Below, piece by piece: positions 4,856 through 61,992 of a stretch of DNA of 64,000 bases (positions within the stretch are counted from its first letter, which is position 1; the number at the start of each line of letters is the position of its first letter). This DNA is from a virus (taxonomy: Duplodnaviria > Heunggongvirae > Uroviricota > Caudoviricetes): IMG/VR virus record IMGVR_UViG_3300046047_000103; one strand, given 5' to 3'. Position numbers and translations under genes: made by a program. Below the pieces are notes generated by a model, which saw only the letters and a program-made list of their open reading frames with translations, had not been told where the DNA came from and ran no database searches.

Positions 4856-5290
4856 CGCAGAGGGTCTCGCCGCTGTCATGGCAGGAGTCGGTCAGAAGTC
4901 TAATCTGTTGAAGAAGAGCGATTCTGACAGTGAGTTCAAGGATTTCGAGGAGAAGATGAGCGACGGGTCGAAGACGACTCGCGGTAAGTAGTAAGCATGA
5001 TCATGGTTGCCGTCATCTTGTAGACAGACCATTCTGACTGATGCTGACGAGATTCGATGGGTGATGATCATACAGATCTGAACATGCTTGTCTACATGAG
5101 ATCTGAGGACGATGTAAGCATGATCCATGCGGGAGAGATTCTGAGACCCCGAAGACTTGATCGTCCACAAGATCGTATTCAGTGTCTCCCGATCTGAACA
5201 CCGTATTAAGATCTTCATCACGGTCATGGAGCCGACGATCTTACAGTCTGACCTCAAATGCTTTACCATCGTTCAACTATCGTCTGGAAT

Positions 5291-5322
5291 CGTTGAAAAG
5301 CTCTCTAGAACCGTTGAAAAGC
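5291..5322. repeat. Two exact copies of cgttgaaaagc (14-bp aaYcgttgaaaagc) spaced 21 bp apart
   Basis: Seen directly at 5291..5301 and 5312..5322 in a region that is probably non-coding. Confidence 0.6.
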
Positions 5323-5389
5323 GTCCTCAGAACGCGAAAATGGAAAAGGGCGAGATGGCAACGTTTAGAGTGTAACATGCGGAAGCATA

Positions 5390-5640
5390 TCCTAGGATAC
5401 ACCCGTCTGGGCCGACGGCGCTCGAGGGCCGGGGACGCAGGGTCAACGGGGTCTCGCCCGCACGATGCTACGGCCGCGCCGCGGAGCTCATCTTGACGGC
5501 CCGCCGGACATGATTCAATGATGCCACTGGTCCGGGGGAGCTTAAGGGCTTGCCGGTGGTCCGAGGCGCTCATGGTCTGTGGGATGGTGCAAGCAGGAGG
5601 ACGAGATGCAGGACGAGACGAGATAAGCAAGTGCATGATG
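5390..5640. other. GC-rich (~68% GC) non-coding island. Candidate structured RNA or DNA element.
   Basis: Only Arg/Pro-rich junk ORFs on either strand. Composition is sharply different from the flanks. Confidence 0.35.
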
Positions 5641-5724
5641 CAAGCAGGGTCTTAAGATCTCCATGATCTTGGTCTCAGAATGATCTCAGTCTTAACGATC
5701 TTAAGATCTTAATTCTTAAGGAAG

Positions 5725-5808
5725 GCAAGTCTTCGAGTCCGCGAGATGGAGGCAAGCAAGTCTATGGGTCCGCGTGGAGGGGTGAAGCGAGTCCATGGAT
5801 CCGCGGCG
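5725..5808. repeat. Three degenerate tandem ~27-28-bp repeats (iteron-like). They follow a GATC/CTTAAG-rich AT stretch at 5651..5720.
   Basis: aagtcttcgagtccgcgagatggagg / aagtctatgggtccgcgtggagggg / gagtccatggatccgcggcgtcttcc. Confidence 0.55.
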
Positions 5809-6107
5809 TCTTCCTTCATCATTGTCCATGGATTCGAGCGATCGTTAAGACTCTTCAAGATCTTATGGCTCCGAGCGATCATTGACCGCATGTGGATGAG
5901 ATCATGTGAAGACGTAAGATGATCTTGTGATCCCCATGATGAAGGCTCTGTCAAGCATGATGATGTCTTCAAGTTGCTCTCCAAGCGCGTCCATCCGGTG
6001 AACGATCTGTCAGCATGATGGGGAATGATGACAGCGTCTGCTGGCTCCGTATTGCCGCGCATCGTCATCATTCCAGATCTGTATTCCTGGCGTCGTCGCC
6101 TTATGAA

Positions 6108-6213
6108 TCGTTCTAACGCGCCTTAGACGCGAGATCTTTATGGCCGGTAAAAAAACGCATGCCGCGCAGGTTCTCACGTCTATGGCGTCACAGACTGCGT
6201 CTGAGGGGCATGC
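6108..6213. repeat. Large imperfect inverted-repeat element, copy 1. Both arms flank an A7 tract.
   Basis: The left arm ttctaacgcgccttagacgcgagatc and the right arm ggttctcacgtctatggcgtcacagactgcgtctgagg are mutual reverse complements. The segment gcatgcc...ggcatgc is nested inside. The right arm is 48/52 identical to 29501..29552. Confidence 0.65.
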
Positions 6214-6264: not shown

Positions 6265-7077
6265 TCAACCGTTCGTGACGATACTGCTCCGATTCTTCAC
6301 GACTTCAAGCATTCGATCCCTGATGGCTTCGACGGGCCATAGCATCTTCCTCCCATTGACCGTGATGATCTTACTAGCAGCACGAGCTTCATCATCCGTC
6401 ACAAGGATCCATGAGAGCTTATCGACTGTCTCCCGTCTGTTCTCATCTGGTGACAGTCTTTCGAATCCGTGGTCCCTATGGCCGTACACGATGAAAGCGC
6501 TGTCCAGGCCGGCTATCGTCTTCTCGATCCATACCTGACGGACATACTTGTGATACTTGTCAGGATCATCCCTCTTCATGTCGACGATGGTCTTGCGAGC
6601 ACCGGTCTTGACCTCGATGGCAGCAGTGGACTCATCGTTGAATCTTGCGACGCCGTCAAGACTTGCATGGATCTTACCGCCGTCTTCATCCGTGAGCAGG
6701 TAGTACGATTCGTCATTCCAGCTGTACTCGCCCGGCTGCAGAAGATCAACCGGGACGTCCTTTCCGGCAGATCTGATGCCCCAGTCTGAGGCCCATCGTT
6801 GAAGCAGCTGCGGCTCATACTCGTGGCCGAATCTGAAGATGCATGACAGGAAGGTAGCCGTCCCGTCCGGATGCACGAACTCGGGACTCTTGGAGTACTC
6901 GTCCATCGTCATGTGAGACTCATGCCATGTCTTCAGTCTGTCCACTTCAGCCAGATCGGTGGCACCTGGGGAGAGTTGACGATTCTTGTACCATCCGTCA
7001 AGATCATGAAAGAGCGTGAAGGTCACATCTTCCACGCTCGTCAGATTCGATCCGTAATGCTTATCATATGCTATCAT
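6265..7077 (-). CDS. YqaJ / lambda-Exo-like PD-(D/E)XK exonuclease (recombination)
   Basis: Motifs FRFGHEYEP and HASLDGVARFNDESTAAIEVKTGARK match the YqaJ-domain pattern (wG..Ep ... aSPDG ... EIKcp). Confidence 0.5.
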   Translation of the reverse strand: MIAYDKHYGSNLTSVEDVTFTLFHDLDGWYKNRQLSPGATDLAEVDRLKTWHESHMTMDEYSKSPEFVHPDGTATFLSCIFRFGHEYEPQLLQRWASDWGIRSAGKDVPVDLLQPGEYSWNDESYYLLTDEDGGKIHASLDGVARFNDESTAAIEVKTGARKTIVDMKRDDPDKYHKYVRQVWIEKTIAGLDSAFIVYGHRDHGFERLSPDENRRETVDKLSWILVTDDEARAASKIITVNGRKMLWPVEAIRDRMLEVVKNRSSIVTNG

Positions 7078-17510: not shown

Positions 17511-17732
17511 TCTCACCAGTCATCTTCAGATCCAGCTATGCGCAGAAGCATAGACCCTACTGCCATTCTGAACGCAATCAGATCGGTCATGCGCTGGAAA
17601 GCGCGATCTAGTATGACGTTACTTCTTGAACGCTGTTGCGTCTTCAGATGCCAGATCTGTCATCATTGCCTTGACGGCGTGTCTGTCGTCAAGGCATGTT
17701 ATCATTGATGTATCCAATCATAATGGGAAGGC

Positions 17733-21542: not shown

Positions 21543-21832
21543 TCTGTAGTCAAGATCTGTCATCTTTAATGGCGTGACTTCCTGATATCTTGCCAGTGGA
21601 AGTCACGCCATTTTTCATATAAGGAGCCTGTCATGGCATTACCTAGAAGAGCCCGTCCGAGAGACCTTGAAGAGTACTCCGAGCCTGCGCCTGAGGTCAC
21701 CAGCACACCGAGTCAGATCCATTTTGATCTACCATCATATGGGGTTCGAAGCCGATCGTCATCCCCGATCCGGAGAGACCTGACCTTGAGGAGCATAAGC
21801 CTTCCGCAGATCACGGATCTAAGCATGACGCC

Positions 21833-29407: not shown

Positions 29408-29432
29408 TCATTCAGATCTGATGTGATCTCAC

Positions 29433-29475
29433 AATGGCGTCATAGAAATCAATCTATGACGCCATTCTCGTATTC
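29433..29475 (+). terminator. Rho-independent terminator-like hairpin after the flotillin gene
   Basis: aatggcgtcatag-aaatcaat-ctatgacgccatt gives a 13-bp perfect stem, followed by a T-rich run. Confidence 0.55.
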
Positions 29476-29555
29476 AGATCTGCCATGCAAAAAAAACACG
29501 TACCGTGCAGGTTCTCACGTCTATGGCGTCACAGATTGCGTCTGATGGGCATGCC
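29474..29555. repeat. Inverted-repeat element family, copy 2. A8 tract plus the right arm.
   Basis: caaaaaaaacacgtaccgtgcaggttctcacgtctatggcgtcacagattgcgtctgatgggcatgc. 48/52 identical to copy 1, in a different reading frame. Confidence 0.65.
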
Positions 29556-29975
29556 AGGTATCCGTGCGGCAATGATCGTCGTCCGATCGTCGTTCTAACT
29601 CCGGATAGATCAGATCTGCATTGCCGGCGATATCTTAACCGTATGGATACTATCGTCGTACATGTTGAAGATCATGATTACAAGTGCTTGGTGGACAATG
29701 CTCTCGGAAGGGTCGTATTCAAGCTCAAGAATGGAGTGATCTTTGACAGCAGTGAAGATCTGTTCAGTAGGATGATCACGGATGATCTTAATGAAGACGA
29801 GAAGAAGTCGGAAGATGAGATACTGTCCGTCTTATCCAGGTTAGCTGAGATCGATTCAGATCTGTCCATCAGTGTAAGCGATACGATCTTACAGCATGAT
29901 GACGATGAGGACGATCTGCCAGCACGCGGTGACTATCACGGATCTGGGTTGCTGATAGGGTCGGATTGGGAATGA
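29505..29975 (+). CDS. hypothetical protein. The 5' end overlaps the repeat element, so the true start may lie downstream.
   Basis: 156-aa ORF. Its first ~17 codons are repeat-element sequence. Confidence 0.35.
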   Translation: MQVLTSMASQIASDGHARYPCGNDRRPIVVLTPDRSDLHCRRYLNRMDTIVVHVEDHDYKCLVDNALGRVVFKLKNGVIFDSSEDLFSRMITDDLNEDEKKSEDEILSVLSRLAEIDSDLSISVSDTILQHDDDEDDLPARGDYHGSGLLIGSDWE

Positions 29976-30024: not shown

Positions 30025-31083
30025 CTACTTCTTCTTAGATCTGCGATACGTTCGCGGCTTCGGGGGATTCTGCTCCCAGATCGTCTTCACATCGTCAAGC
30101 GTGATCGTACGCGGATCGTTACCATCAGGAAGCGAGATGAACTGGGCTCGTCCCTTCGGTGTCTTCTTGAACCCGATCCATGGACCCCGCTTACCGATGC
30201 CAGTGAAGTAGCCCTCACCGATCTGTCGGGGAAGCTTGATCTCGCTGAACAGCTTGCTAGCAGCATCGAATGTGATCGTGTTCTCATCGTATCCATCTGG
30301 TATCGTCATGTTCACGGGCTTCGCGCTCTTCACCGGTGCGCCCTTCGTGTTCAGCTTCACGGCTTGCACGTATGCGCCGTACTTACCGCTCTTCGCCGTC
30401 AACTGGTAGCCAGCGTACGGACCGTCAGACAGTACTCCAAGAACATGATTCACGATCGGCTTCGCGTCGGCTAGCAGCTTCTTGCAAGCATTCGGGGATA
30501 GGGCGTCTTCACTGGTGAGAGCATCATCGTCCAATCTCACGCTCTTCACGTACCCGTCATCATTCTTCTGACCCGACGGATCTTCCAGCCATGCTCCTGC
30601 CTTGTTCACTCTCACCACGTACCCGCCGTTCAGATGGATCTCGGACAGCGTGTTGACCTCATCCCAATTGATGTTCTTGGCAAGTCCGTTCACCTTGCGG
30701 TCAATGCCGTCGGATCCCTTCCACGCCGTGTCCAGGAACTCCTTCAACGTGATCTTCCCGGACGCGATGTCGTCAAGCTGATCTTCCATGTGAGCGGTGA
30801 AGCCGTAATCAATGAAGTCGGGCATGGTCGCATCCAAGATCTGCGCGACCTTCATGCCGGTCCATGTCGGGACCATGGCCTTACCCTTCTTCTGGACGTA
30901 CCCGCGCTTCTGGTTAACGGTGACAAGATTCGCATACGTGGATGGCCGGCCGATGCCAAGCTCTTCCATCTTGGCGACCAGCTGCGGTTCCGTGTACCGT
31001 GGTGGCGGGGTAGTCGTATGGGTCTGTGGAGAGGCGTTCGAGATCACACACTCTTCCCCGACCTTGAAGTCATAGTCTGTCAT
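30025..31083 (-). CDS. topA: DNA topoisomerase IA, C-terminal cistron
   Basis: PPPRYTEPQLVAKMEELGIGRPSTYANLV. Its ATG overlaps the upstream TGA (TGATG) and is preceded by AGGAGGG. Confidence 0.8.
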   Translation of the reverse strand: MTDYDFKVGEECVISNASPQTHTTTPPPRYTEPQLVAKMEELGIGRPSTYANLVTVNQKRGYVQKKGKAMVPTWTGMKVAQILDATMPDFIDYGFTAHMEDQLDDIASGKITLKEFLDTAWKGSDGIDRKVNGLAKNINWDEVNTLSEIHLNGGYVVRVNKAGAWLEDPSGQKNDDGYVKSVRLDDDALTSEDALSPNACKKLLADAKPIVNHVLGVLSDGPYAGYQLTAKSGKYGAYVQAVKLNTKGAPVKSAKPVNMTIPDGYDENTITFDAASKLFSEIKLPRQIGEGYFTGIGKRGPWIGFKKTPKGRAQFISLPDGNDPRTITLDDVKTIWEQNPPKPRTYRRSKKK

Positions 31084-32504
31084 CAGTCCCTCCTACCGTC
31101 GTCATAGACCTTCAGGAATCCTGGGTCATCTATTCTTGTACTTGCCGTCGTGAAGACAGCCTTGCCGTCAGTTGACGTGATCGTGATCTTCTTCGTCACT
31201 CCACGGGCCGGATCCATCTGACTGGCCACGCTTCTCCTATAGACAAGATCGTACACGTCCCCGGCCTTGTCGTCGAATGCTGATCCGCCCGTCATCCTAC
31301 GGATCTTGGATGGGGCATAGAACACCCCGGTCGCCTCATCGATCACGGGACGGATGCATTCATGGCCCTCCTGCGCGTTCTTCGACTTTGACTTGTAGAC
31401 AATGGGCTTTGCCGGCATCTTGCCTCCATACTGCTTCCTGATGATAGCCCTGGCTGCATTGATCGCCTCGCTGGCCATTGCCGGGCTGTCCGTCCTGGAG
31501 TACGTCTGGTACGTGTGCTCGAAGAGCTGCTGGGCGATCGTCATAGATCTGCTTGCGGACAGTCCTAGCAGGCTTCCAACATTCTGCTGGTATGATGACG
31601 TGGTGTACGGGACGGGTGGACGTCTGGCGTACGGTCGTTCCGTGATGTCCGTGATCGTGTACGCTAATGTCTTCAAGTCGCTGACGGCCTGTTGCAGATC
31701 TTTACCTAGAAGGACGATCTTCCCCTTGTTCTTCAGCTTGCCGTCAGCCGTGAAGTCGCCGGATCCAGCCATCTTCCTGCCATTCCATTCGACGAGTGAC
31801 GCTGTGATCTCATTCGGTCTGCCTTCATTGAAGACAGCGTCAATAGATCCGTACTCTGATGGGATGAATCTGATCCGCTCCTTCTCCCGGTCGACCACGA
31901 GACGAAGCGCCGGACTCTGCGCCCTGCCGCCGGACGTTCCTGACCCTACGGTCTTCCAGAGGTACGGGCTGACGCTGAATCCGAAGAGACGATCATACTC
32001 CTGACGGGCTTGTGCAGACTGTGCTTTCAAGGTGTCCACAGATCCGTACGCTTCAAGTCCGGCAAGCACGGCCTTCTTCGTGATCTCATGCCATGATGCT
32101 CGCCTGACATCCATGTGCTGCTTCTTCAGATCGTTCTTAAGCGAGTCGGCCACCTCGTATCCGATGAGTTCGCCGGCTTCATCAGGGTCAGTGCTGACAT
32201 AGAAGTGCTTCCAGCGGCCAGATCTGACCGCATCCCTGATCTCATTCCATTGCTTCCTGTTCTGCGGATCGTGGTCAAGCAGCCGATCATAACTGCCATC
32301 ACTGACATTGATCGAGTATGATCCGTAGATCTGCTTCTCATCCTTGGAGAGCTTCTTCGGATCCTTCAGCTCGAACATGAATCCCTTGGTAGGCATGATC
32401 AGCCATTTGGATCCCAGGAATCCGGAGATCTCCCTAGCCTTCGTCGGTGACTCTACGATCATCAGACCGCCGTCGCTTAGTATCGTTTTGATGTCATCAC
32501 TCAT
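31083..32504 (-). CDS. topA: DNA topoisomerase IA, N-terminal cistron (Toprim plus catalytic Tyr)
   Basis: IVESPTKAREI, DPDEAGELIGYEV, SGRAQSPALRLV and QTYSRTDSPAMAS (catalytic Tyr). Confidence 0.85.
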   Translation of the reverse strand: MSDDIKTILSDGGLMIVESPTKAREISGFLGSKWLIMPTKGFMFELKDPKKLSKDEKQIYGSYSINVSDGSYDRLLDHDPQNRKQWNEIRDAVRSGRWKHFYVSTDPDEAGELIGYEVADSLKNDLKKQHMDVRRASWHEITKKAVLAGLEAYGSVDTLKAQSAQARQEYDRLFGFSVSPYLWKTVGSGTSGGRAQSPALRLVVDREKERIRFIPSEYGSIDAVFNEGRPNEITASLVEWNGRKMAGSGDFTADGKLKNKGKIVLLGKDLQQAVSDLKTLAYTITDITERPYARRPPVPYTTSSYQQNVGSLLGLSASRSMTIAQQLFEHTYQTYSRTDSPAMASEAINAARAIIRKQYGGKMPAKPIVYKSKSKNAQEGHECIRPVIDEATGVFYAPSKIRRMTGGSAFDDKAGDVYDLVYRRSVASQMDPARGVTKKITITSTDGKAVFTTASTRIDDPGFLKVYDDGRRD

Positions 32505-32546
32505 GGACAGTATGGTACCGTTATGATCATTCCATGATGCGGACGG

Positions 32547-33743
32547 CTAGTCCTGGACTATCTTGCAACGATCTGCGTAGACTGTCTTCTTCGCATCGTA
32601 GTGCCCCTGTGACGACTTGAAGTCTTCTGGCGAGTGCGTGTCCACGTACTCCTTGATCTCACTGATGACGGCAGTCGCCTGGTCGACGTCAATATAGCCG
32701 GGGTATCTTGTCTCCTTCATGACGCCAGGCGTCCCCTTGTCCGTCGGTACAAGAACGACGTATGCCTTGACCTCGTCACCGTACGGGAAGATCTTCTCGA
32801 ACGCATTGAGTGAGATCTCATCAGATCTGGTTTCAGCGTACTTCTTATCTTCCGTATGCAGTTGAAGGAAGTGCGGGACTTCTATCTCGACTCCGTGGGA
32901 GTCTTTGATGGACTCGTCACGGATCTTCCAGATATGCTTCCAGTCGTCGTCACTCATGTTCCGCAAGATGAGTTCGCCCTTGCCGTCAGGCCCGCCCTGA
33001 TCTATCATGTAGTCGTTCTCGTGTACTGGCGTGTAGTACTTCGCGTCAAGCATCCATGTCATGTCGCCGTACATGATGACGCAGTCCACATCAATGTCGA
33101 AGTTCGTATCAGGTGACTCTAGCGACCAGAACGTGAAGACATTCTTGTTCTCAAGGAGACCGCTCTTTGCGACCAGACCGGCTAGTATTCTCTCGCCTTT
33201 GGCTCCGTACTTCGCCCGATCACCGAACTTCTCCACGGTCGCTACACCGCCGCCGGGCGTCCCGTATGTCTGCCCTGCCGGCAGGGTTGTGGACAGTCTC
33301 TCCAGTTCAGCAACGTCGGCCGGAGGTTCTGGTCTCCGCTTGATCCCATCTGGCTGCAGCTCCCGGTACAGATCGATTGCGAATTCGACCCGGGCATTCG
33401 GCTTGTACCATTCCTCGAATCTCTTCGTTGGCTCCCCATAGAGCAGATAGATGAACGGGTAAGCGATCACGCACGGTACAAGCGCATAGACGTGGAAGAA
33501 CCACAGCGCGATGCCAATGGCCTCGAATATGGCGAATCTGTAGAACAGCCTGTGGGGATCATAGTTCTCGGCCTCGCAATGCGCTTTGAATAGCATGAGT
33601 GCAAGCACCGTGAAGACAGCGACGAACAGCCATCTTATGATCGTGATCGGCATGAAGATGGCGGCAAGACCAAGTCCAATGACGAGGAGATCCATCTTGA
33701 CGATACCCCAGTTGATGGGTTCTTTCTCAGTATTAGTATCCAT
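32547..33743 (-). CDS. membrane-anchored NERD (nuclease-related domain) protein
   Basis: N-terminal TM helices. GAKGERILAGLVAKSGLL...DIDVDCVIMYGDMTWMLDAKYYT resembles the NERD pattern (GE..V...L ... IDhvvi...fviEtK). Confidence 0.5.
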   Translation of the reverse strand: MDTNTEKEPINWGIVKMDLLVIGLGLAAIFMPITIIRWLFVAVFTVLALMLFKAHCEAENYDPHRLFYRFAIFEAIGIALWFFHVYALVPCVIAYPFIYLLYGEPTKRFEEWYKPNARVEFAIDLYRELQPDGIKRRPEPPADVAELERLSTTLPAGQTYGTPGGGVATVEKFGDRAKYGAKGERILAGLVAKSGLLENKNVFTFWSLESPDTNFDIDVDCVIMYGDMTWMLDAKYYTPVHENDYMIDQGGPDGKGELILRNMSDDDWKHIWKIRDESIKDSHGVEIEVPHFLQLHTEDKKYAETRSDEISLNAFEKIFPYGDEVKAYVVLVPTDKGTPGVMKETRYPGYIDVDQATAVISEIKEYVDTHSPEDFKSSQGHYDAKKTVYADRCKIVQD

Positions 33744-33893
33744 GTAATCTAAATATAATTGTAGATCTCACGGAATGCAAATTCTTATAGTCTTCTGAAG
33801 TCCATCATATCATGGATCGTGTCTGATAGCAACCTGTAGACGAACGATTCTTATACTGATCTATCGTTGCAGTCTCAACGAATCCGTATGATC

Positions 33894-34496
33894 TTACTCA
33901 GATGGTGATGGGGTTCCTTCCCCATGATCTTCAAGATCGTTCCCAGATGCATTCAGATCTTTCAAGACCGAGTCCATGTTCAGCCACGTCTTGTCCGCAA
34001 CGGCGCCTGCACTGTTGACGATGATCATGTTCTTCCGCTGATCATATCCGGTGATGATGATCTGCTCCTGGTCGCTGATCTCATCGTCACTCATGTAGTA
34101 TGATCGTCTCGGCCCGTCACCAAGATCAATGATGCCCTCGCCAACCTCACCCGGCTTCGTATCAGTTATGGACTTCCCTATCTTGCCGATAGATCTGGCC
34201 TTGGACTCCTCAGGTTCGCCGGCCGAGCGCCTGATCATAACAGATATGATCTTCACGATGATGGCTGACGCGATGAACCCGGACACCGTGGCCACGCCTG
34301 CTATCATGAATGTCGGCAGTCCAAGACCAAGCGTGATAAGACCTGAAGCGCCTCCGATACCGAGGAATGCGCCAAGCGCTCCGGTGACGGATGATCCTCC
34401 GCCTTCAAGTCCGAAGTCCACGCCGATGTCCGATCCGGACGCTGATAGGAAGAGCAGACCTGCCCCCACAATGGTCGCCAAGATAAGCCAGTTCAC
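33894..34496 (-). CDS. membrane protein
   Basis: 200-aa ORF with Gly-rich TM helices. Confidence 0.45.
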   Translation of the reverse strand: MNWLILATIVGAGLLFLSASGSDIGVDFGLEGGGSSVTGALGAFLGIGGASGLITLGLGLPTFMIAGVATVSGFIASAIIVKIISVMIRRSAGEPEESKARSIGKIGKSITDTKPGEVGEGIIDLGDGPRRSYYMSDDEISDQEQIIITGYDQRKNMIIVNSAGAVADKTWLNMDSVLKDLNASGNDLEDHGEGTPSPSE

Positions 34497-35347
34497 CGCT
34501 TCACGTCCTTACCGTCTTCAACGATGTCTTCAACGATCGCCGTTCCAGCCGGGTCACGAGCGATAGCCGGCATGGATAAGATGTCTTCACTGATGACGTT
34601 ATGATCGTACTTGTCTAACAATGATCGTACGCCGTACTGACTCAGGAATGCTTGCATCGTTGGCCGGGTGGGGCTATCCACCCAATCCCACTCGACCCTG
34701 GAGTACTTCCAGTCAGGGGCTGCCTCCAGTCTGCCGTCATGGACCGCCTTCAAGACGGTCTCATGGATCCCACTGTTCGTGTTCGCCGTGCAGAAGGCGT
34801 CATCGATCGTGCCCTCGGAGTTGATGCTTACCCGGATGGATGTGATCTTCACGATGTCGTCGCCCTGCCCGGCCTGCAAGAGAAGCCCGCCGTCCTCCAT
34901 CTTGCACGGGACGGTCAGCGGACGATCAGTATCGACGGTAGCCGTGCAGAACACGGGATCCCATTCCGTCAGTCTTGCCGTGATCCCACCCTTCTTCAAG
35001 ACGGCGAGCTCAGTGTCCTCAGATCTGTCCGCAGGCCTGCCGACAGAATCTTCACGAGATGCCGGATGAGACACCGGCTTCTTGCCGATCGTGGCAAGCA
35101 AGCCGTTGATGTCCACATGCTCGGTTCCGGCTAGTTCGAGAACGTTGACAAGCTCGTTGACCGCATCTTCATCGACCCCGACAAGCCCGTGCCGTTGGAT
35201 AGCGGCTACACCAGCGGCTAGTATCGTGATGATGATCTCCGACGGTTCAGGGGCGTCAGTGTCTATCCCAGCCTCCATGAGAACCCTATTCCGATTGACC
35301 TTCCTGACGATAGCCCTTACCAGATCAATCGTGCTCCGACTACTCAC
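34493..35347 (-). CDS. hypothetical protein
   Basis: 284-aa ORF with a 4-nt overlap onto its neighbour. Confidence 0.45.
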   Translation of the reverse strand: MSSRSTIDLVRAIVRKVNRNRVLMEAGIDTDAPEPSEIIITILAAGVAAIQRHGLVGVDEDAVNELVNVLELAGTEHVDINGLLATIGKKPVSHPASREDSVGRPADRSEDTELAVLKKGGITARLTEWDPVFCTATVDTDRPLTVPCKMEDGGLLLQAGQGDDIVKITSIRVSINSEGTIDDAFCTANTNSGIHETVLKAVHDGRLEAAPDWKYSRVEWDWVDSPTRPTMQAFLSQYGVRSLLDKYDHNVISEDILSMPAIARDPAGTAIVEDIVEDGKDVKR

Positions 35348-36633
35348 AGATCCTCCCTTGACAGCTGATCTTGAAGCTCTGGCATGTCATAGGTCTCACC
35401 GACGATGAAGATCTTCGTGCTGTCAGGGATGGTCAGTCTGTCACCATTGTCTGTTATGATCATCCTTGATTTGATCATTGTCTTCATCCATGAATCCTTC
35501 CGTGGATCTAGACTGATCGCCAAGATCATGGCGTTCCCGGAGATGACGGTGAAGATCCATGATGGAATGATGACCTTATCGTCATTTATGGTGACAGATC
35601 TGCTCAGCGTGCTGGCATCCGCGTCTAGGGCGACAAGCTCTTTGCCGGACGCTTGCGCGATCATATTGACCATGGACAGGTCGCCATGCTTGCCACCAGA
35701 CATGAAGACAAGATCTTCAGCATAATCAATCCTGGCGTCTGGTACAGTATCGTCCTTCCCTACCGGGGCTCCGGGTTCCTCATCATTGCTGACAGGATGA
35801 TCTGCAACCATGTCGTCATCCTCGTCCGGCAGATCGTTGAACTCGGAGTACCGTCCCATCAGATCCATGGCCCCTCCATGGGCGCCAGATCCGTCATGAG
35901 AGGAGATCATGCTCTCTATGGAGTCAGCGAGCTGCATCGGATCTATTGGATCATCATCCTCGTCTTCCGTCATGGCGGCAAGCTTGTCAGCATCAGTGCT
36001 TTCATCCAGATCTGTACCGACCTTGAATCCGTCCGGGGCTGATGACCAGACCGTCATTTCCATAAGGTTAGGTATCTTATCCAGTCCACCGTCCTTACGG
36101 ATCGATCCGATCGGGAAGTATGTCGTGGCATCATTACCGGCTAGCGTGATGATGACATCATTGCCTGACTTACTGATGAACCCCCTGATCTTCCCGTAGT
36201 CTTCCAGCTTGTAGCCAGTGAATCTGACCTCGGCCGGCTTGCCGTACAGATCGTTCAGACGAGCGCTGGAGAGATCAAGCTTTCTAGCCGGTTCCTGCTG
36301 ATCTTGATGATCATCCGTCAGAACGGTGCCATCATCTGGTTGATCATCAAGGGCATCCACGTCGTCCGCATCCACGTCAGCAATGATGTCAGCCCATTGC
36401 TTCGCGAAGATCTTACGCTGGGCGTCCTGCTTCACGTCAAGTCCATCGATCGTGTTGATCATGTTCCAGTACCGAAGCAGTGACGCTTTGTCCACGTACG
36501 CGCTGACATCTGGTATCAGTGAGATGTTGTCATAGTCTTTGAATGATCCGTCAAGATCACCGGAGCGTATCTTGCTAAGAGCTGAATCTTGCAGCCCTCT
36601 CGTCATCTTAAGAGATGCATTGTCATCAGTCAT
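35344..36633 (-). CDS. hypothetical acidic protein
   Basis: 429-aa ORF. Confidence 0.45.
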   Translation of the reverse strand: MTDDNASLKMTRGLQDSALSKIRSGDLDGSFKDYDNISLIPDVSAYVDKASLLRYWNMINTIDGLDVKQDAQRKIFAKQWADIIADVDADDVDALDDQPDDGTVLTDDHQDQQEPARKLDLSSARLNDLYGKPAEVRFTGYKLEDYGKIRGFISKSGNDVIITLAGNDATTYFPIGSIRKDGGLDKIPNLMEMTVWSSAPDGFKVGTDLDESTDADKLAAMTEDEDDDPIDPMQLADSIESMISSHDGSGAHGGAMDLMGRYSEFNDLPDEDDDMVADHPVSNDEEPGAPVGKDDTVPDARIDYAEDLVFMSGGKHGDLSMVNMIAQASGKELVALDADASTLSRSVTINDDKVIIPSWIFTVISGNAMILAISLDPRKDSWMKTMIKSRMIITDNGDRLTIPDSTKIFIVGETYDMPELQDQLSREDL

Positions 36634-36725
36634 GCTTCCTCCATGTTCTTATACGGCTCATAGTACCATAAGAAGATATTCAAGATGGCCCTTGTCAACA
36701 GGATGGGATATGATGATCACATAGG

Positions 36726-37139
36726 TTGACGACTAGTACGGAAGGACCTGATATGGCTGCGAGAACGGTCGAGTATGACAAGTTCAATAATTCCCTGCAA
36801 CGCGAGCTGAGTGAGAATGACGATCCGTCTCACGTTATGGACATTGACGTCCATGAGTATGATGGTATGATCGGCATCTGCAGGATGACGGACGCTAAGA
36901 ACAGTACGATCATGGGGCGGCTGGTAAGACGGAGGGATGGGGTGATGATGCTGTCATCTGACGTCAGTGAACTTGAAGAAGCATCAGAACCCGTCGAGCA
37001 AGGATTTGATCCCGTGGTTCTGTCCGACAGGTTCGGCCAGCCGGCCGTGGAGACCCTGGAGACGGTGAAGAGTCTGATCGTCGTGAGCTCACCTGACGGC
37101 AAGCATGTGGAGTCAACGATCGTATGGTCTCGCAGATGA
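36726..37139 (+). CDS. hypothetical protein
   Basis: 137-aa ORF between two minus-strand blocks. Confidence 0.4.
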   Translation: MTTSTEGPDMAARTVEYDKFNNSLQRELSENDDPSHVMDIDVHEYDGMIGICRMTDAKNSTIMGRLVRRRDGVMMLSSDVSELEEASEPVEQGFDPVVLSDRFGQPAVETLETVKSLIVVSSPDGKHVESTIVWSRR

Positions 37140-38597
37140 TCACATGGAGAACGGATTGATCGGACCGCCATTCAGATCTTCTATCGGGCTGACATGATCA
37201 TCCTTATGATCGTCATCATTGCCGGGTTCGGAAGATATGGACGGGGCGACGACGTTCACCGTGTCCTCGGCTGTCTGCACAAGACGCTTCCGTTCGATCT
37301 CGATGCCCTGCAGCCCGGCGTCAGCAGCAGCCTCGACCTGGGCTAGTCCGTCACCGTCAAGCTGGTACAGATCAGATCTCGCCAGCCGGATGGACGCATC
37401 CGCTATCTGGGTCGCGTGCGTGGAGTCGACGGCCGTGTTCCCCGCCACGATGGTCTTAAGATCATTGGCCTCGGCATCTAATGTCTTCAGCTTGTCAGCA
37501 ATGCTCTTCCTGTACTCGTCAGCCTCATTCCTGTCCGCGATCACTCCGTCTAGGGGATGTGCTTCAAGAGACTCGGAGTCATACCCGATCGTGCTGTTGA
37601 TCACAATGGGCTCATCGCCCTCGAACGATCTTATCGTGTTCCCCGCCGACTGGTGCTTCACGTAAAGACTCAAGTATCGCTCGGCTTCATATGGCTTCAA
37701 CGTGCATTCGGAGTCAAGCCTCCTATTAGACTGGAACCATGCCATTCGTCCATCGGAAGATACGGCCGTGTTCATAATCGCGGGCGGAACGGAATACTTC
37801 CCTCCATGCTTCGAGCCGATGTACTTCTCGACCTCCTTCGTAGCCGAGTCTGCGAGCTGGTGTGGCGTAGCCTTTCCGTCATTGTACTGCCAGCATAGCC
37901 AGCCGTCAGATGTCTCCAAGATGTAGCCAGGTCTGCGCACGGGCTTGGTGATCAACTTCTTCACGGTGTTGCTCTTCCTGATCCGCTTCAGGCCATAGAT
38001 CAGCATAGCCGCTCCAAGAATGCCTAGTCCGACACCTGAGTTGAAGGCAAGCATGATAACACCGGAGACGACGAGTGTGACGGCGCTTCCGTGCGTCGAT
38101 CGTCTGACGTCCATGAGAGCGCTGCTCATGGCCAGTTCATCAGCCGAGTACGCACTGGTAAGATCATCATTGAACGATGTGATATGATACGGCTCGTAAT
38201 TAGACAAGGCTTGCAGGACATCAGTCTCTATCGTGTATGACGGATCATACGAGACACCGATTGTCTGGCACTTGTTTGATCTCCAGTCCACGGATGAGAT
38301 CATGTCCTTCTGGACGATGTCCGCCCAATCTTCATGGCCCGTCTTCCGCATGTTCTCAATGACTTCACGGAGGATCACGCTGTTCTTGGACTTGAGAACA
38401 TCATCCTGGTAGCCGTACGGGAGCTGGATGTACAGCCCGCCGAATGATCCGTCAAGATTAGTTCTCGGCGTCCATCTGATCGCATGCTTGTCCAGGCTTG
38501 TCTGCCGGTAATTCCAGAATGGTCTCAGTTTGATGCCAGATCCGTCATGGTCAAGCCTGTCATGGACGAGATCTGTGCGAGATACTAATTCAGTCAT
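37140..38597 (-). CDS. hypothetical protein with a central TM hairpin
   Basis: 485-aa ORF. AVTLVVSGVIMLAFNSGVGLGILGAAMLIYGL. Confidence 0.45.
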   Translation of the reverse strand: MTELVSRTDLVHDRLDHDGSGIKLRPFWNYRQTSLDKHAIRWTPRTNLDGSFGGLYIQLPYGYQDDVLKSKNSVILREVIENMRKTGHEDWADIVQKDMISSVDWRSNKCQTIGVSYDPSYTIETDVLQALSNYEPYHITSFNDDLTSAYSADELAMSSALMDVRRSTHGSAVTLVVSGVIMLAFNSGVGLGILGAAMLIYGLKRIRKSNTVKKLITKPVRRPGYILETSDGWLCWQYNDGKATPHQLADSATKEVEKYIGSKHGGKYSVPPAIMNTAVSSDGRMAWFQSNRRLDSECTLKPYEAERYLSLYVKHQSAGNTIRSFEGDEPIVINSTIGYDSESLEAHPLDGVIADRNEADEYRKSIADKLKTLDAEANDLKTIVAGNTAVDSTHATQIADASIRLARSDLYQLDGDGLAQVEAAADAGLQGIEIERKRLVQTAEDTVNVVAPSISSEPGNDDDHKDDHVSPIEDLNGGPINPFSM

Positions 38598-38605
38598 GCT
38601 TCCTC

Positions 38606-39184
38606 CTACAGGTCAAGATGAGCTTTCTTGAGGGCTGGTGATGATCCGCCGTTCGCCACGATCCTAACCCTGCCGCTATTCAGCTGTATGGTACCCCGCA
38701 CGGTAAGATTACCGCTAGACGGCATCCATACCGCATCATACGTACCACCCTTGATGTCCTTGACGACGATGCCGTCACCATTTGACGTGAGGACGCTCTT
38801 GTCAGCAGTCGTGGCCAGTGAGATCGACTTGATCTCATACTCATTCACGATGTCGCGGAACTTGATGGTGGTTGGCCCTAACGGGGGTAAGAACATCTGC
38901 GTCAAGATCGTGACCGCGATGAGGATGACCGTGGATAAGATTCCGTTCCGGACCTTATCCCTGATCTTACCAGGGTCGATGGTGTTGATCGTCTGCATGA
39001 TCTTATGCTCTCGTCCCGTAGCCCTGTCAACCAGATCTGCACCGGCTTTCCATGTGATCAGTGCTGTCACTGCGAACACGCAAGCAATGATGAGTACCAG
39101 CATGATCATTCTCTTGATGCCACCGGTCTGGACGGCGACCGGATACTTTGACGCATCGACTCCAATGGCTAATATCGTGAACAT
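38606..39184 (-). CDS. membrane protein
   Basis: 192-aa ORF with an N-terminal TM. Confidence 0.4.
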   Translation of the reverse strand: MFTILAIGVDASKYPVAVQTGGIKRMIMLVLIIACVFAVTALITWKAGADLVDRATGREHKIMQTINTIDPGKIRDKVRNGILSTVILIAVTILTQMFLPPLGPTTIKFRDIVNEYEIKSISLATTADKSVLTSNGDGIVVKDIKGGTYDAVWMPSSGNLTVRGTIQLNSGRVRIVANGGSSPALKKAHLDL

Positions 39185-39263
39185 TCCAGCTCCCTAGCAA
39201 GGTTGATCTTCATGGAATGAAGATATTCAGGGTGATGTTAGATCTCATTCGTAGGGAGGTCTT

Positions 39264-40751
39264 ATGAGCGTGAAGATCAGGTACGGTGTGGATGATCATG
39301 GCATGTTAAGCCCGTGCAGAGCTAAGCATGGCAATGAGGGCAAGTACGGCTGCCATCACGTTGATCATGTAGAGTTGACGCGAGACGAGTATCAAGAGCG
39401 AATGGAGCAGGCTTACAAGAACAGCGTGCTCGGTGAATCCTCTGCTCTTGGTCACAGAAATGATGGCCATTCTGAGGCCAGGAAGATCTCGCACATTGCC
39501 AAGCCTATCACTGAGATACCACATATAGATTCCGGTCAATATGATCGCACTACTGGAAGATTTCTCAATTCTCCAATAGCTCTTATGGAATACGATCATG
39601 AGAGCATGAAGAACGGGTACGCAAGCATCTTCACGGTCGTAGGTCATGATGGTGTGGATAAGATCGCATTAGACGATAAGATCCGGGGCCTGTCAGCATT
39701 GTCGCCAGATGAGGTCGAGGCCCGTGGCGCTAAGATCGCTAGTGAATTGGGTCTTGATGCGAATCATGTCAAGTCTGATGAGCTCGTCCGCAGATGGTTC
39801 CATGATAATAACGATGGAAGCAATGATCATCATGATGAGATCGTTGGTCCACTTCGTAATGATCTCATGAGGGAGATCGTTCCATTCCTTCCGCGTTCGG
39901 TCACGTCTTCCCATGACAGTATTCCGTTGAGCGCATCATACGCTAAGGCTGACACGATCCAGAGACGATACGGTCAGAAGGATACGAAGGAGGGTAAAGT
40001 CGCTGGATTCTACTCGACCGCTGGAACATGGTCTGAGAACGTTGTTCATGAGGTTGGGTTCAATAAGACCATGACGTTCGGAGCCAAGGATGTGTTGGAG
40101 TCGATACCAATCGGCCATGTTTTCTATAATGGATCGGGGCACGGGATGGGTGACCCAGTGAATGATACCCCTGACGCTCTGTCGAATGCAGCCGGAGGAA
40201 TGGAGGCCGGTGTAGGATGGATGAAGGTCAGTGATTCTACATGCAAGAAGGTTTGGATCGGTAAACGTCCAAGAGGTCATGACGGGACAAGATACGTGAA
40301 GATATCTGATTCGGTGACCTTATCAGGATGGAAGAAAGACAGATCTACTCATCATGTGAAGGTGTATGAAGTCCAGTCACAGGATGATAAGGCCGGTCAT
40401 ATCATCGTCATCAGGAGGCACGGATCCAGGGACAGTGTGAATTCAAAAGATTTCATGCTGAATCAGCTTGCTCATGAGTACACGCATTATCTCACGCATC
40501 AGCATCCGGGGCTTATGGATCCGGTCGGGAAGATGTATGACTCCCTCAAGGAGAAGAACGGATTCCCGAGGGCTAACGAGTATGCGGAGAGTCCGATCTA
40601 CATGGAGACGAATCCAACCGAATTCATCGCTGAGGCAACCGCGAGGATGATCCAGCCAAAAGGGCTGGCATCGTTATACGGATCTGACCATGACGAGCAG
40701 CTGAAGCGTCTTAGGAACTGGACGATAGGGTTCTGGGCGTCCCTCGCATAA
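39264..40751 (+). CDS. Cys/His-module family protein with a C-terminal HExxH zincin-like domain
   Basis: N-terminal SPCRAKHGNEGKYGCHH...HVELTRDEYQERMEQ. C-terminal LAHEYTHYLTHQ (HExxHxxxQ, zincin / DUF4157-like). Confidence 0.55.
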   Translation: MSVKIRYGVDDHGMLSPCRAKHGNEGKYGCHHVDHVELTRDEYQERMEQAYKNSVLGESSALGHRNDGHSEARKISHIAKPITEIPHIDSGQYDRTTGRFLNSPIALMEYDHESMKNGYASIFTVVGHDGVDKIALDDKIRGLSALSPDEVEARGAKIASELGLDANHVKSDELVRRWFHDNNDGSNDHHDEIVGPLRNDLMREIVPFLPRSVTSSHDSIPLSASYAKADTIQRRYGQKDTKEGKVAGFYSTAGTWSENVVHEVGFNKTMTFGAKDVLESIPIGHVFYNGSGHGMGDPVNDTPDALSNAAGGMEAGVGWMKVSDSTCKKVWIGKRPRGHDGTRYVKISDSVTLSGWKKDRSTHHVKVYEVQSQDDKAGHIIVIRRHGSRDSVNSKDFMLNQLAHEYTHYLTHQHPGLMDPVGKMYDSLKEKNGFPRANEYAESPIYMETNPTEFIAEATARMIQPKGLASLYGSDHDEQLKRLRNWTIGFWASLA

Positions 40752-40835
40752 GGTCACGGATCCATTTGCCGTATGATCTTATCTGTTGTATGATGATCTT
40801 GATCGAAGCGTTCTCCTCGATGAAAGAAATGATCA

Positions 40836-41894
40836 ATGAACATCATAGAGTCAAACAACTCGTTAAGCATCTTCCCTGATGGGGTGAAGGTCTATAAGAC
40901 CATACCGGCCGGCGTCTATAAGATAGAGTCAAGCGCTACTTCCGGATTCTATCTGGTGCGGCGCGGTGATCTTCCGGTGGACGGTAAGGTCTACGGGAAT
41001 CGTGATCATGAGGTCGATAAGGTCTTCACCATGTTCAATCACGTGGACAAGTCCCTCGGAGTGATCCTCTCCGGTCCTAAGGGCATTGGTAAGACCCTGT
41101 TCTCAAGAATGCTTGCACGGCATGCGATCAGTGTTGGGATTCCGGTCATTCTCGTGACTGACAACACTGATGGGATCCAGAATTATCTTGAAAGCATTGA
41201 CCAGAAGGCCATGATCTTGTTCGACGAGTTCGAGAAGACCTTCCTGAACGTCTCATCGGACAATACAGGTGGATGCACTCAGGACGATCTGCTCTCCCTG
41301 TTCGATGGGCTATCCACCGCCAAGCACTTGAACGTGATTACCGTGAATGACATCGGCAGGGTAAGCTCATTCCTCGTGAATCGTCCTGGAAGATTCCATT
41401 TCAACATCAGGTTCATGTATCCAACCGCTGATGAGATCAGGGAGTACTTGCATGATCAGCTGGATGACCAGGAGTATGAAGACATCGATGAGATCGTCCA
41501 GTTCTCCGGGAAGTACCCGTTGAATTACGATTGCCTCAAGGCCATCGTCGATGAGGTCAATCTGTTCCATGAGCCGTTCGAGGACACGATCAAGGACCTT
41601 AACATCGTCAACTGGGGCATCGAATCGATCTTCAAGTATCAGGTCGTATGGAAGAATGGAAGGGTATGGTCTACAACCGAGACTGATGCTCCGTTCAATG
41701 ATAGCATGTCATTCATCTTCGACGATGGGAATTACTGCGATAACGTCGAGATACCCACGTCTAATATGGAGAGGGACAGGAATGGGAACATCGTGGTGAC
41801 AGATCTCAGCTTCATAGATAGCCATTTCCCTGATCGAGCGAATCTTGAGAAGATCGTGATCTCAATTGACCGGAAGGACTACCTGGCATTCTGA
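40836..41894 (+). CDS. AAA+ ATPase
   Basis: Walker A GPKGIGKT and Walker B ILFDEFE. Confidence 0.6.
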   Translation: MNIIESNNSLSIFPDGVKVYKTIPAGVYKIESSATSGFYLVRRGDLPVDGKVYGNRDHEVDKVFTMFNHVDKSLGVILSGPKGIGKTLFSRMLARHAISVGIPVILVTDNTDGIQNYLESIDQKAMILFDEFEKTFLNVSSDNTGGCTQDDLLSLFDGLSTAKHLNVITVNDIGRVSSFLVNRPGRFHFNIRFMYPTADEIREYLHDQLDDQEYEDIDEIVQFSGKYPLNYDCLKAIVDEVNLFHEPFEDTIKDLNIVNWGIESIFKYQVVWKNGRVWSTTETDAPFNDSMSFIFDDGNYCDNVEIPTSNMERDRNGNIVVTDLSFIDSHFPDRANLEKIVISIDRKDYLAF

Positions 41895-42012
41895 TCATTC
41901 AAGGGGCTAGATGCATCATTGCGTCTAGCCCCTTATTGGCATGTTAACCCCCTCTTCACGCATGAGATTGACCTAACATGTTGTTAGATTGATTCCATGG
42001 TAGATAGATCTA

Positions 42013-42603: not shown

Positions 42604-42613
42604 GAGGCGGCTG

Positions 42614-43738: not shown

Positions 43739-43838
43739 CCGTTAGCTTCGGCGCGTCTGAACGATCTGCGTGATACGATAGAATTGTTCGATGACGGAAG
43801 CACCGTTCTAGCGGACTGGCGGAGAATGGAATGGTAAG

Positions 43839-53245: not shown

Positions 53246-53530
53246 GTGAGCAGAAGCCAGGAGCATCATATGAAGTATGTCATCGTCGATGGGCGGGTCA
53301 CGCCCTGTCGGGCAGCAGACCCGAATCATTGCCGGTATCATGTCGGCGCTACGCACTACGCTTCAAAGCACGATGCTACTGTAGAACTTGAACGGGAGAT
53401 CAGGAATGATGTCCCCGCGAAGAATGGTCTTAGGAAGAACGACGTCGTTGAAGAGGAGACCGTGAGATCATGCATCAAGACCGGCAAGCATCTTGTTGAC
53501 CTGGCCGCAGGTAGGGTCACTAAATGGTAG
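53246..53530 (+). CDS. small Cys/His-module family protein
   Basis: VIVDGRVTPCRAADPNHCRYH. Confidence 0.45.
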   Translation: MSRSQEHHMKYVIVDGRVTPCRAADPNHCRYHVGATHYASKHDATVELEREIRNDVPAKNGLRKNDVVEEETVRSCIKTGKHLVDLAAGRVTKW

Positions 53531-53580
53531 CATCTGAACGCAATCTGCGATGATGTGGCCATCCATGGACGGCAGCATGT

Positions 53581-53672
53581 CATCAGACGCATTCTAACGC
53601 GCCATAGACGTGAGATCACCAATGGTGTGAGTAAAAAAACGTGGTTGCGGTCAAGCGCGTTAGAAGGGCGTT
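53581..53672. repeat. Inverted-repeat element family, copy 3. It lies between convergent genes and probably acts as a bidirectional terminator.
   Basis: catcagacgcattctaacgcgccatagacgtgagatc...gtaaaaaaacg...cgcgttagaa. The ttctaacgcg/cgcgttagaa pair is a perfect inverted repeat. Confidence 0.6.
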
Positions 53673-54455
53673 CTATCGAATCTCACGCATAGAGTATATC
53701 TTGCGTGATCTAGGATCTGCGGGGTCAACCACCCCGACCTCATTCCAGAATCCCGCGTACTTGCGGCGGAAGTTCTTCCGATTCACGTCTGACTCCATGG
53801 AACCGAACAGCCCGCAGCGCAGACGGATCGCGTCGTCAAGCGTGAATTCATCTGGAAGCGTGTAGAAGACATTCGGTATCCAGTCGAACTGCTCCTGGAG
53901 TCTCCGGACAAGAACTTTCACCATAAGATCGTGATCGAATGCCAGTCCCCCGTTCACGGCGAGATCTAGCATCGGCACCCATTCGCCCTCAAGATCATTG
54001 ATCTTCCAGTTGATCGCGTCTTTCAGATAGATCGTATGCAGAATGCTGACGACTTGTCCGCGCGGATCACGATGCAGACCGGCGAACGTCCGGATCTGCT
54101 GGATACTGTACCGTGGCAGCGTATGGAACAGGTATCGCATCGTCCTATTCACCGCGTCCACAGCGTCGTTCTCATCTGTATGCAGGAATGTTCCCGTGAT
54201 GGCCATTGATCCCAGGAACGGATGCGTGGTCCGCTTCGTGACCAGCATCTTCAACGACTCGTTCGCAGGGCCATTGGGATCATATGTCAGCATAGCGCAG
54301 TCGACCGTGACATCAGGATGATCATACGCTTCCCGTCCAGCCGGCTCGCCCGGAGCCCTGTCCTTAGGATCTCGCGTCCACCACGCAAGCCATTCAGACT
54401 CCGTCGCTTCGCTCTCATACCATTGCTTGGTTCGTCTTGTCATGATCTCCTCCAA
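53673..54455 (-). CDS. hypothetical protein (weak Nudix-like resemblance)
   Basis: 260-aa ORF. Confidence 0.35.
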   Translation of the reverse strand: MEEIMTRRTKQWYESEATESEWLAWWTRDPKDRAPGEPAGREAYDHPDVTVDCAMLTYDPNGPANESLKMLVTKRTTHPFLGSMAITGTFLHTDENDAVDAVNRTMRYLFHTLPRYSIQQIRTFAGLHRDPRGQVVSILHTIYLKDAINWKINDLEGEWVPMLDLAVNGGLAFDHDLMVKVLVRRLQEQFDWIPNVFYTLPDEFTLDDAIRLRCGLFGSMESDVNRKNFRRKYAGFWNEVGVVDPADPRSRKIYSMREIR

Positions 54456-58469: not shown

Positions 58470-58508
58470 TACGGCATGTCTTCACGGACGACGTGATATG
58501 ATCGTCAT

Positions 58509-61651: not shown

Positions 61652-61738
61652 CCCCTGCTAGTAATCAGGGTTGACGTGAACGAGGATTCTCGGTAACGGC
61701 GACGGGTTTAACCAAGAATAACGGTTACTAGCAACTGT
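61652..61738. repeat. ~87-bp leader-like repeat, copy B
   Basis: About 88% identical to 4..90. Confidence 0.7.
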
Positions 61739-61952: not shown

Positions 61953-61992
61953 AACGGCGCAATCTTATCACGGGGATTGCGCCGTTCTTTGT
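61953..61992 (+). terminator. Rho-independent terminator-like hairpin
   Basis: aacggcgcaatc-ttatcacggg-gattgcgccgtt gives a 12-bp perfect stem, then ctttgtatctg. Confidence 0.55.

Follow-up and report, generated by a model that had tools for sequence, protein, structure and literature searches.

A dispersed intergenic palindromic repeat at gene ends in two related huge phages

Between two genes near the start of a huge-phage contig lies a long inverted repeat with a run of A residues at its centre, and two further intergenic loci in the same DNA look much like it. Are the three loci related, and what might such an element do in the gaps that it occupies? We analyzed a stretch of 64,000 nt (the window), which is the start of the 349,703-bp JGI metagenome contig Ga0455797_000015 (window coordinate = contig coordinate + 91). 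The phage encodes rIIA, rIIB, NrdA, NrdI, a split topoisomerase, a clamp-loader-like ATPase, IF3, and a CCA-adding enzyme. The window also encodes SPFH, TelA, VKOR, and LemA-type membrane proteins, and the IF3 homologue and CCA-adding enzyme lie near its tRNA region (57951-59972). Its GC content is 53.5%, and nothing close to the window DNA was found among GenBank phages.

The composition of this DNA is unusual in its own right. GATC occurs 1143 times in the 64 kb (4.6 times expectation) and CATG is 2.2-fold over-represented; CTAG, TATA, AATT, and TTAA stand at 0.25-0.36 times expectation. GATC density is 8-14 per kb in the related 420-kb phage described below and 4.5-7 per kb in more distant relatives found through DnaG, and the excess could reflect Dam-type methylation or another DNA modification. 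To our knowledge, the punctuation of transcription and the organization of the genomes of huge phages of 350-490 kb are largely obscure, and their non-coding DNA has hardly been catalogued.

Three related loci in the window

The three loci are related far beyond chance and are present where the earlier note had placed them. Read from the A-run, copies 1 and 2 (6149-6213 and 29490-29554) are identical at 59 of 65 positions; for their right arms, previously given as 48/52 identical, a recount yields 49/52. Copy 3 has an arm at 53581-53615 that is the reverse complement of the arms of copies 1 and 2 (85-86% over 33-35 nt), and the left arms of copies 1 and 3 agree at 23 of 26 positions. An nhmmer arm profile detects five 45-nt arms in 71 kb with E-values of 2e-13 to 3e-11, the next match having an E-value of 0.1, and CGCCATAGACGTGAGA is the sole 16-mer that is present at least three times in the window when both strands are counted. 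The proposed poly-A centre holds as well; A/T runs of seven or more occur in the 64-kb window solely at 6149, 29489, and 53633, all of them as A on the + strand. The run is the centre of an oriented core, which makes it more than a spacer.

Independent gene calls place all three copies between genes, as had been proposed, and the JGI gene calls agree that copy 3 lies between convergent genes. In the JGI annotation, moreover, the small gene that follows copy 2 begins at 29643, in line with the suggestion that the ORF start overlying the arm of this copy is spurious and the arm non-coding. Other parts of the original description need revision. Copy 2 was thought to retain the right arm alone; its left arm is present at 29450-29465 and pairs with 29523-29538 at 15 of 16 positions. 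The nested gcatgcc/ggcatgc repeat can be seen in copy 1, but it is peculiar to that copy and is not a feature of the family. Wider bounds than those first drawn fit all three elements better (Table 1), and what was taken for a three-copy family numbers at least five copies in the source phage, with at least 13 more in a related one.

Table 1. Elements in the window and their parts (window coordinates)
Feature	Position	Strand	Basis
Copy 1, whole element	6096..6213		full-length nhmmer match 6102-6204, E 5.7e-20
Copy 1 arm, type B: ...TCTCGCGTCTAAGGCGCGTTAGAACGATTC	6096..6140	-	nhmmer arm profile, E 2.7e-11
Copy 1 core: mini-hairpin GCGCG-GCA-TGCGT, then T7	6149..6167	-	terminator-like scan
Copy 1 arm, type A: GCAGGTTCTCACGTCTATGGCGTCACAGACTGCGTCTGAGGGGCATGC	6166..6213	+	nhmmer, E 2e-12
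Copy 2, whole element	29431..29555		full-length nhmmer match 29443-29545, E 3.6e-16
Copy 2 hairpin, 15/16 bp: ACAATGGCGTCATAGA..TCTATGACGCCATTCT	29431..29468		hairpin scan and fold
Copy 2 core: mini-hairpin GCACG-GTA-CGTGT, then T8	29489..29508	-	terminator-like scan
Copy 2 arm, type A	29507..29554	+	nhmmer, E 7.3e-13
Copy 3, whole element	53574..53672		full-length nhmmer match 53584-53668, E 1.3e-9
Copy 3 full arm, type B; two AGACG 21 nt apart	53574..53621	-	nhmmer, E 2.3e-13
Copy 3 core: GTGAGT-A7-CGTGG	53627..53644	+	read from sequence
Copy 3 short arm GCGCGTTAGAAGGGCG	53655..53670	+	pairs with 53590-53602, 12/13 bp (hairpin scan and fold)

Copy 1, which folds as a long hairpin on both strands, lies between two genes on the - strand, a YqaJ-like gene upstream (6265..7077) and an ORFan (5709..6071) that starts 25 nt downstream. 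Three small ORFs adjoin this copy (4892-6071, -); they have poor codon-usage scores and no family matches, and may be recently acquired genes. The T7 of the core reads as A7 on the + strand (6149-6155), and between the core mini-hairpins of copies 1 and 2 a change from G-C to A-T, read by eye, keeps the pair. The SPFH gene stops at 29407, 24 nt ahead of copy 2, which extends to 88 nt short of the small gene 29643..29975. The left arm of copy 2 is the 3' half of the 15/16-bp hairpin in Table 1, and the 57-nt loop that separates this arm from its partner holds the A8 (29489-29496, +; T8 on the other strand). Copy 3 occupies the gap between the gene 53270..53530 (+) and the NrtR-like gene 53673..54455 (-), and on the - strand its core reads CCACG-T7-ACTCAC, the same core as in the copies of the relative. 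Logan (De Bruijn) assemblies of the same phage break within copy 1 and within the type A arm of copy 2, and the element has a practical effect: it breaks short-read assemblies, and at copy 2 it misleads the calling of ORF starts.

Anatomy and distribution of the family

When the strand with the T-run is placed on top, the elements of the family align over their full length. A full arm consists of AGACG-N16-AGACG around TTCTAACGCGCC, or, written in more general form, (GTCAT)yAGACG-yr-module-wTAGACG, in which the module is TTCTAACGCGCC, RTCTGTGACGCC, or TTCCATGACGCC; each full arm contains the small palindrome TCTAAcgcgccTTAGA. About 20 variable nucleotides follow, usually ending in a mini-hairpin of 4-5 bp with a GNA triloop, then the core of T7-8 and, in most copies, ACTCAC(CTGG), then about 16 variable nucleotides and the short inverted arm GCGCGTTAGAA-yrCrTCy. 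Most copies have the full arm 5' of the T-run; in copy 3 and L131 it is on the 3' side, and L133, with copy 1 in part, carries it on both. Conservation exceeds 90% in the arms and core, and the remainder has diverged (mean column identity 67%). By eye, the core was also compared with an SD-like AGGTGA followed by ATG or GTG, with a DnaA box, and with a T7/SP6 promoter; each was dropped as inconsistent between copies.

The geometry is strict. In 13 of 16 copies the two AGACG motifs are spaced by exactly 21 nt, close to two helical turns, and the elements measure either 93-96 nt or, where both sides have the extra module, 105-106 nt, a step of 11 nt that corresponds to about one helical turn. 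Arm types are mixed across the two sides of copy 1, L132b, L133, L163, L164, and L166, which indicates that copies exchange sequence.

Every copy can be folded as a long hairpin in which the inverted arms span 74-85 nt, and the inverted symmetry of the outer arms exceeds that of displaced alignments (72% of cells paired, against 29-49% with the partner columns slid). Within the outer helix there was no covariation beyond column composition (71.9% paired versus 72.6% in shuffles), folding energy did not differ between sense and antisense strands, and a test for G-U asymmetry was null. The proposal that each copy maintains its own complementary inner stem was rejected, the two halves matching each other no better than they match halves taken from other copies (p = 0.62). 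Three structure tests thus gave no support to a selected RNA structure, and the conserved property is sequence and geometry and not a base-paired helix in itself.

Outside the window, the source phage carries a fourth copy between tRNA-Ala and tRNA-Ile of its tRNA array (L128, in which 7.3 kb were read beyond the window) and a fifth after dnaG (L173). The copy in the tRNA array keeps the arms and has a perfect 15-bp central hairpin in place of the T/A run. An arm-pattern scan of IMG/VR returned seven matches on a single contig of 419,707 bp (IMGVR_UViG_3300044557_000292, hereafter the relative), and further scans together with a profile search raised the count to at least 13 copies, with positions at 1.3, 22, 26, 35, 121, 124, 210, 256, 276, 377, 398, and 399 kb. 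In a 99%-identical strain of the relative (L174) the expected copy is in place; it carries four base substitutions and has T6 where the relative has T8. The three window copies are nearly evenly spaced (23.3 and 24.1 kb apart), a regularity that the copies of the relative do not show.

The family was not found in the rest of IMG/VR or in 50,697 GenBank phages, nor in relatives identified by RNR (L143-161) or more distant ones identified by DnaG (L176-179). The exact arm pattern has no counterpart among 185,579 GTDB species (one genome per species). An exact 16-mer search of IMG/VR gave four matches, all unrelated, a degenerate 16-mer run against metagenomes gave at least 120 matches, all due to chance, and the pattern matches L162, L165, and L170-172, like four matches in GTDB, were chance hits in unrelated DNA. 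At the gathering threshold of Rfam the sole matches were tRNAs, and for copies 1 and 3 at E-values up to 10 there was nothing other than chance-level matches.

The tRNA array begins at 62016, with seven tRNAs inside the window (62016-63879), and reaches window-equivalent 71295 (L128 41-9320), giving at least 46 tRNAs in 9.3 kb; one call, 63070-63147, has an odd four-base anticodon. Two other repeats were noted in this DNA. An 87-nt direct repeat, 89% identical, lies at 4-90 (upstream of the first gene) and 61652-61738 (upstream of the tRNA array), its first copy falling outside the JGI record, whose base 1 is 91 nt after the window start. A second intergenic motif, GGCGTGTC, occurs at 4082, 13459, and 17676 on the + strand and at 61434, 62088, and window-equivalent 65083 on the - strand, in several cases with (C)ATAACATAGTC about 20 nt ahead of it. 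One copy of this motif forms the loop of the hairpin at 17667-17696, and the motif could represent a promoter of the phage or a further repeat family.

Gene-end positions and inheritance

All 19 copies that could be located are intergenic, and in most cases a stop codon is 0-65 nt away. Strictly convergent junctions are filled by copy 3, L131, and L136, and L138 probably lies at another; among the 19 copies there is no clear case of a divergent promoter gap, L133 being ambiguous. Where the flanking genes are co-directional, the sense strand carries the T-run in about four cases (copy 1, L132a, L164, and the dnaG copy L173) and the antisense strand in about six (copy 2, L130a, L130b, L163, L166, and L133b), and the run therefore cannot be a working U-tract across the family. 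A hairpin followed by a T-run, the signature of a terminator, is present on one strand in two of the three window copies (1 and 2) and in both dnaG copies; copy 3 has no such feature. The sole copy without a T-run is the one inside the polycistronic tRNA array. A promoter scan found no sigma-70-like promoter in or beside copies 1-3.

Some copies flank ORFans, a Doc/Fic gene, or a two-gene segment. The small ORFs that follow copy 2, L130b, and L163 were considered as a shared downstream gene and proved to be mutually unrelated. In the relative, at about 398-399 kb, a Doc/Fic-family toxin gene (Pfam E 1.3e-5) lies between two copies of the element (L133 268-1314), and upstream of this gene are direct repeats of TTAGTGACGGTTATAGT that are operator-like in look.

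Comparison of the two phages shows that copies have been kept in place. Their orthologues are 66% identical for DnaG, 73% and 66% for the two parts of the topoisomerase, and 84% over 330 residues for SPFH, and other proteins of the topoisomerase block are 31-51% identical. A figure of 24-32% identity between the two phages proved wrong, having come from a comparison of non-orthologous primases; real orthologues are 66-84% identical. An element lies 6-15 nt past the dnaG stop in both phages (L173 3089-3180 and L136), with the T-run on the dnaG sense strand. Another element comes after the SPFH gene in each phage, its A-run on the sense strand, so that copy 2 has a positional counterpart in the relative (L175 1129-1223), and the A8-CACGTAC core that these two elements have in common is 81-82 nt from the SPFH stop in each genome. 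The family is thus present in a related genome, positional counterpart included, and the outcome named in advance as fatal to the idea, namely that the three loci would prove unrelated in relatives, was not observed.

Since ordinary intergenic DNA would no longer align at such divergence, we infer that purifying selection acts on the arms and core and that the copies are inherited in place; the orthologous position and orientation at two loci likewise mark them as inherited, selected gene-end elements. At the same time, the nearest neighbour of a copy is mostly another copy of the same genome (up to 0.88 identity in the relative), which points to gene conversion or local spread. Within the relative, some copies form clusters with 80-88% identity to one another, against an overall identity between copies of 62-69%. 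Copies that are inherited in place and also exchange sequence would give rise to the chimeric arms and to the resemblance within each genome.

Next to each of the two orthologous elements is an inverted gene block. One of these, the 9-kb block with the topoisomerase genes (window 30025-39184, L175 1359-12517), is convergent to SPFH in the source phage and co-directional with it in the relative. The type IA topoisomerase in this block is split into two adjoining ORFs on the - strand (31083..32504 and 30025..31083), with an identical split in the relative (L175 10001-11404 and 11447-12517), and the window genes 39264-45323 are missing from the corresponding place there. Beside dnaG, a block encoding a 473-aa protein, an S26 peptidase, and a 486-aa protein is inverted in both phages compared with the distant relative L177 (DnaG 46% identical), in which a plain 10-bp hairpin follows dnaG in the place of the element.

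Possible functions and known counterparts

Judged by its sequence and surroundings, the element is a cis-element of about 95-125 bp kept in short gaps after genes by two related GATC-rich huge phages (350-420 kb). The reading that we tentatively prefer, which we consider plausible though short of probable, is that it acts as an orientation-tolerant boundary between transcription units, as a terminator, a 3'-end hairpin, or a roadblock. Transcription arriving from the T-run side would produce a small hairpin followed by U7-8, resembling a weak intrinsic terminator. From either side, the inverted arms would close the hairpin of 74-85 nt, a structure that could make RNA polymerase stall, shield the 3' end upstream of it, or undergo processing.

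Several observations argue for such a boundary: the location at gene ends and convergent junctions, the retention of elements at the same gene ends in both phages, the mini-hairpin and U-run on one strand, the loss of the T-run inside the polycistronic tRNA operon, and the plain hairpins at equivalent places in relatives and elsewhere in the window. Strong hairpins of 11-15 bp, mostly without a T-run, lie just past genes at 1980-2016, 17667-17696, 21568-21612, 41901-41934, and 61953-61986; canonical terminators with a hairpin and a T-run number 4 in the first 20 kb, fewer than the 9.6 expected from shuffled sequence. Against a boundary role, the strand of the T-run does not track the transcription of the flanking genes, and neither covariation, nor complementarity of the inner halves, nor an energy difference between strands was detected. 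Copy 1 also ends 25 nt before the next start codon, where full termination would silence the downstream genes. Among the four kinds of function first proposed for these loci, a terminator or boundary role is the best supported, but a classical bidirectional intrinsic terminator does not fit a T-run that is internal and whose strand is independent of flanking transcription.

A hairpin terminator, moreover, does not need some 45 conserved nucleotides. The near-invariant sequence of arms and core, the phased AGACG motifs, and the 11-nt step in length suggest that a dedicated protein may also recognize the element.

Much of the anatomy would equally suit a REPIN- or MITE-like non-autonomous mobile element, whose arms would be terminal inverted repeats for a transposase or RAYT-like enzyme encoded elsewhere, and which would be found at gene ends because insertions are least harmful there. 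The family is multi-copy, non-coding, and uniform in size, with conserved inverted arms around a more variable interior and the small palindrome TCTAAcgcgccTTAGA in each full arm. The clusters of similar copies in the relative, the copy in a tRNA spacer, and the Doc/Fic toxin gene and separate two-gene segment that are each flanked by two copies are also what mobility would lead one to expect, and MITEs in viral genomes are known, if rare (PMC11602168). We nevertheless consider mobility unlikely, because at two loci the elements of the two phages, whose proteins are 66-84% identical, agree in position, orientation, and spacing, a result that weakens the miniature mobile element of the earlier note. 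An overall identity of 62-69% with conserved blocks also speaks for long-term selection and not for a recent burst. No target-site duplication is visible, there being no direct repeats in the flanks of 15 aligned copies, though their fuzzy ends could hide a very short one. Transposase, recombinase, and HNH domains are absent from the window proteins and from those adjoining the copies of the relative, no Y1/RAYT domain was found in the window, a listing of the flanks showed no GTAG at the arm ends, and the exact arm pattern lacks a counterpart in the GTDB genomes.

If sequence and not structure is conserved, the element could instead work as DNA: a phage protein would bind the phased AGACG/TTCTAAC motifs of both arms around an A-tract bend, in the service of recombination (block inversion or cassette exchange), replication, or genome organization and not of transcription. 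The 21-nt spacing and the 11-nt length step agree with such a nucleoprotein site, as do an orientation that is independent of transcription, the position of two elements at the edges of inverted blocks (copy 2 at the topoisomerase block and the copy at dnaG), and chimeric arms as signs of sequence exchange between copies. In the relative, eight of the nine sites from 1 to 276 kb have the T-run on the - strand and all three from 377 to 399 kb have it on the + strand, an apparent polarity based on 12 sites and on a boundary set once the data had been seen. However, the inverted block in the window has no element at its far end (39185-39263), no recombinase or candidate binding protein was identified, and strict adjacency to stop codons is not something that such a site would predict. 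On balance we give this explanation a low likelihood. A broader version strikes us as more doubtful: the copies would be sites of a phage protein system that organizes huge-phage genomes, either as polar boundaries, insulators, or roadblocks or as recombination sites, inherited in place and homogenized by gene conversion. Were it true, the family would be a phage counterpart of the bacterial REP/BIME or Ter/KOPS-type sequences that impart architecture to chromosomes.

Very improbable, finally, is a small-RNA gene or a PeSL-type promoter-plus-terminator cassette: the element is structured and conserved and some copies flank variable small ORFs as PeSLs do (PMC4122927), but the window copies have no sigma-70-like promoter in or at them, no Rfam match stood out even at an E-value of 10, the core taken as a promoter would leave 6-7 downstream genes co-oriented and 7 opposed, and folding energy favors neither strand, so that the sRNA genes once proposed here lack a promoter, an Rfam match, and a preferred strand.

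Whichever function applies, the family is a defined and easily searched cis-element, kept by purifying selection at the same gene ends in two lineages, and its strict length, phased motifs, and oriented core point to a specific trans-acting partner. With block inversions and accessory-gene cassettes close by, it may also help to explain how modules are shuffled in these genomes.

Of the known systems, Rho-independent (intrinsic) terminators, including the bidirectional ones at convergent genes, have some features in common with the element. Like them, the element follows stop codons, occupies convergent junctions, and has a small hairpin and then a T-run on one strand; unlike them, it carries the T-run inside a large palindrome on a strand that does not track transcription and conserves about 45 nt. 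PeSLs of T4-type phages consist of a sigma-70-type promoter and a short stem-loop (PMC2839356, PMC4122927). They share with our family the character of repeated, regulatory-looking intergenic motifs of large virulent phages that are conserved within a genome; in both, some copies adjoin variable ORFs and a part in recombination and in the shuffling of modules is suggested, and the source phage also has rIIA and rIIB. The present element differs in having no detectable promoter and in its long palindrome with specific arms.

Among bacterial repeats, the Correia/NEMIS elements of Neisseria and the ERIC elements of enterobacteria are imperfect intergenic palindromes of 100-150 bp that are co-transcribed with their neighbors and form hairpins; RNase III cleaves the Correia elements, at whose centre lies an IHF site. 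All of these are MITEs with TA target duplications, present in tens to hundreds of copies. The phage family is likewise an imperfect intergenic palindrome that folds into a hairpin, but it has few copies, occupies orthologous positions, and shows no duplication. With MITEs in general it shares terminal inverted repeats, small size (93-106 nt), absence of coding, and multiple copies (at least 5 and at least 13), but not the target-site duplication.

Also among the closest analogues are REPINs, which are reportedly inverted doublets of REP sequences mobilized by RAYT transposases in bacterial chromosomes. Like them, the phage elements are about 100 nt long, intergenic, and multi-copy, with inverted arms that contain small palindromes and are joined through a spacer into one hairpin, and their arms are better conserved than the interior and have persisted for long. 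The unit of a REPIN, an imperfect palindrome of 20-40 nt that forms a larger hairpin when doubled in inverted orientation, has its equivalent in TCTAAcgcgccTTAGA and the 74-85-nt span of the arms. In contrast to REPINs, this family is borne by phages, with no RAYT gene seen in the window and no GTAG at the arm ends, and it has an oriented T7-ACTCAC core, unequal arms (one full, one short), and positional conservation across genomes. By its sequence, then, it is a previously undescribed dispersed intergenic palindromic repeat, set apart from these systems by its unequal arms, T7-ACTCAC core, strict length, and conserved positions.
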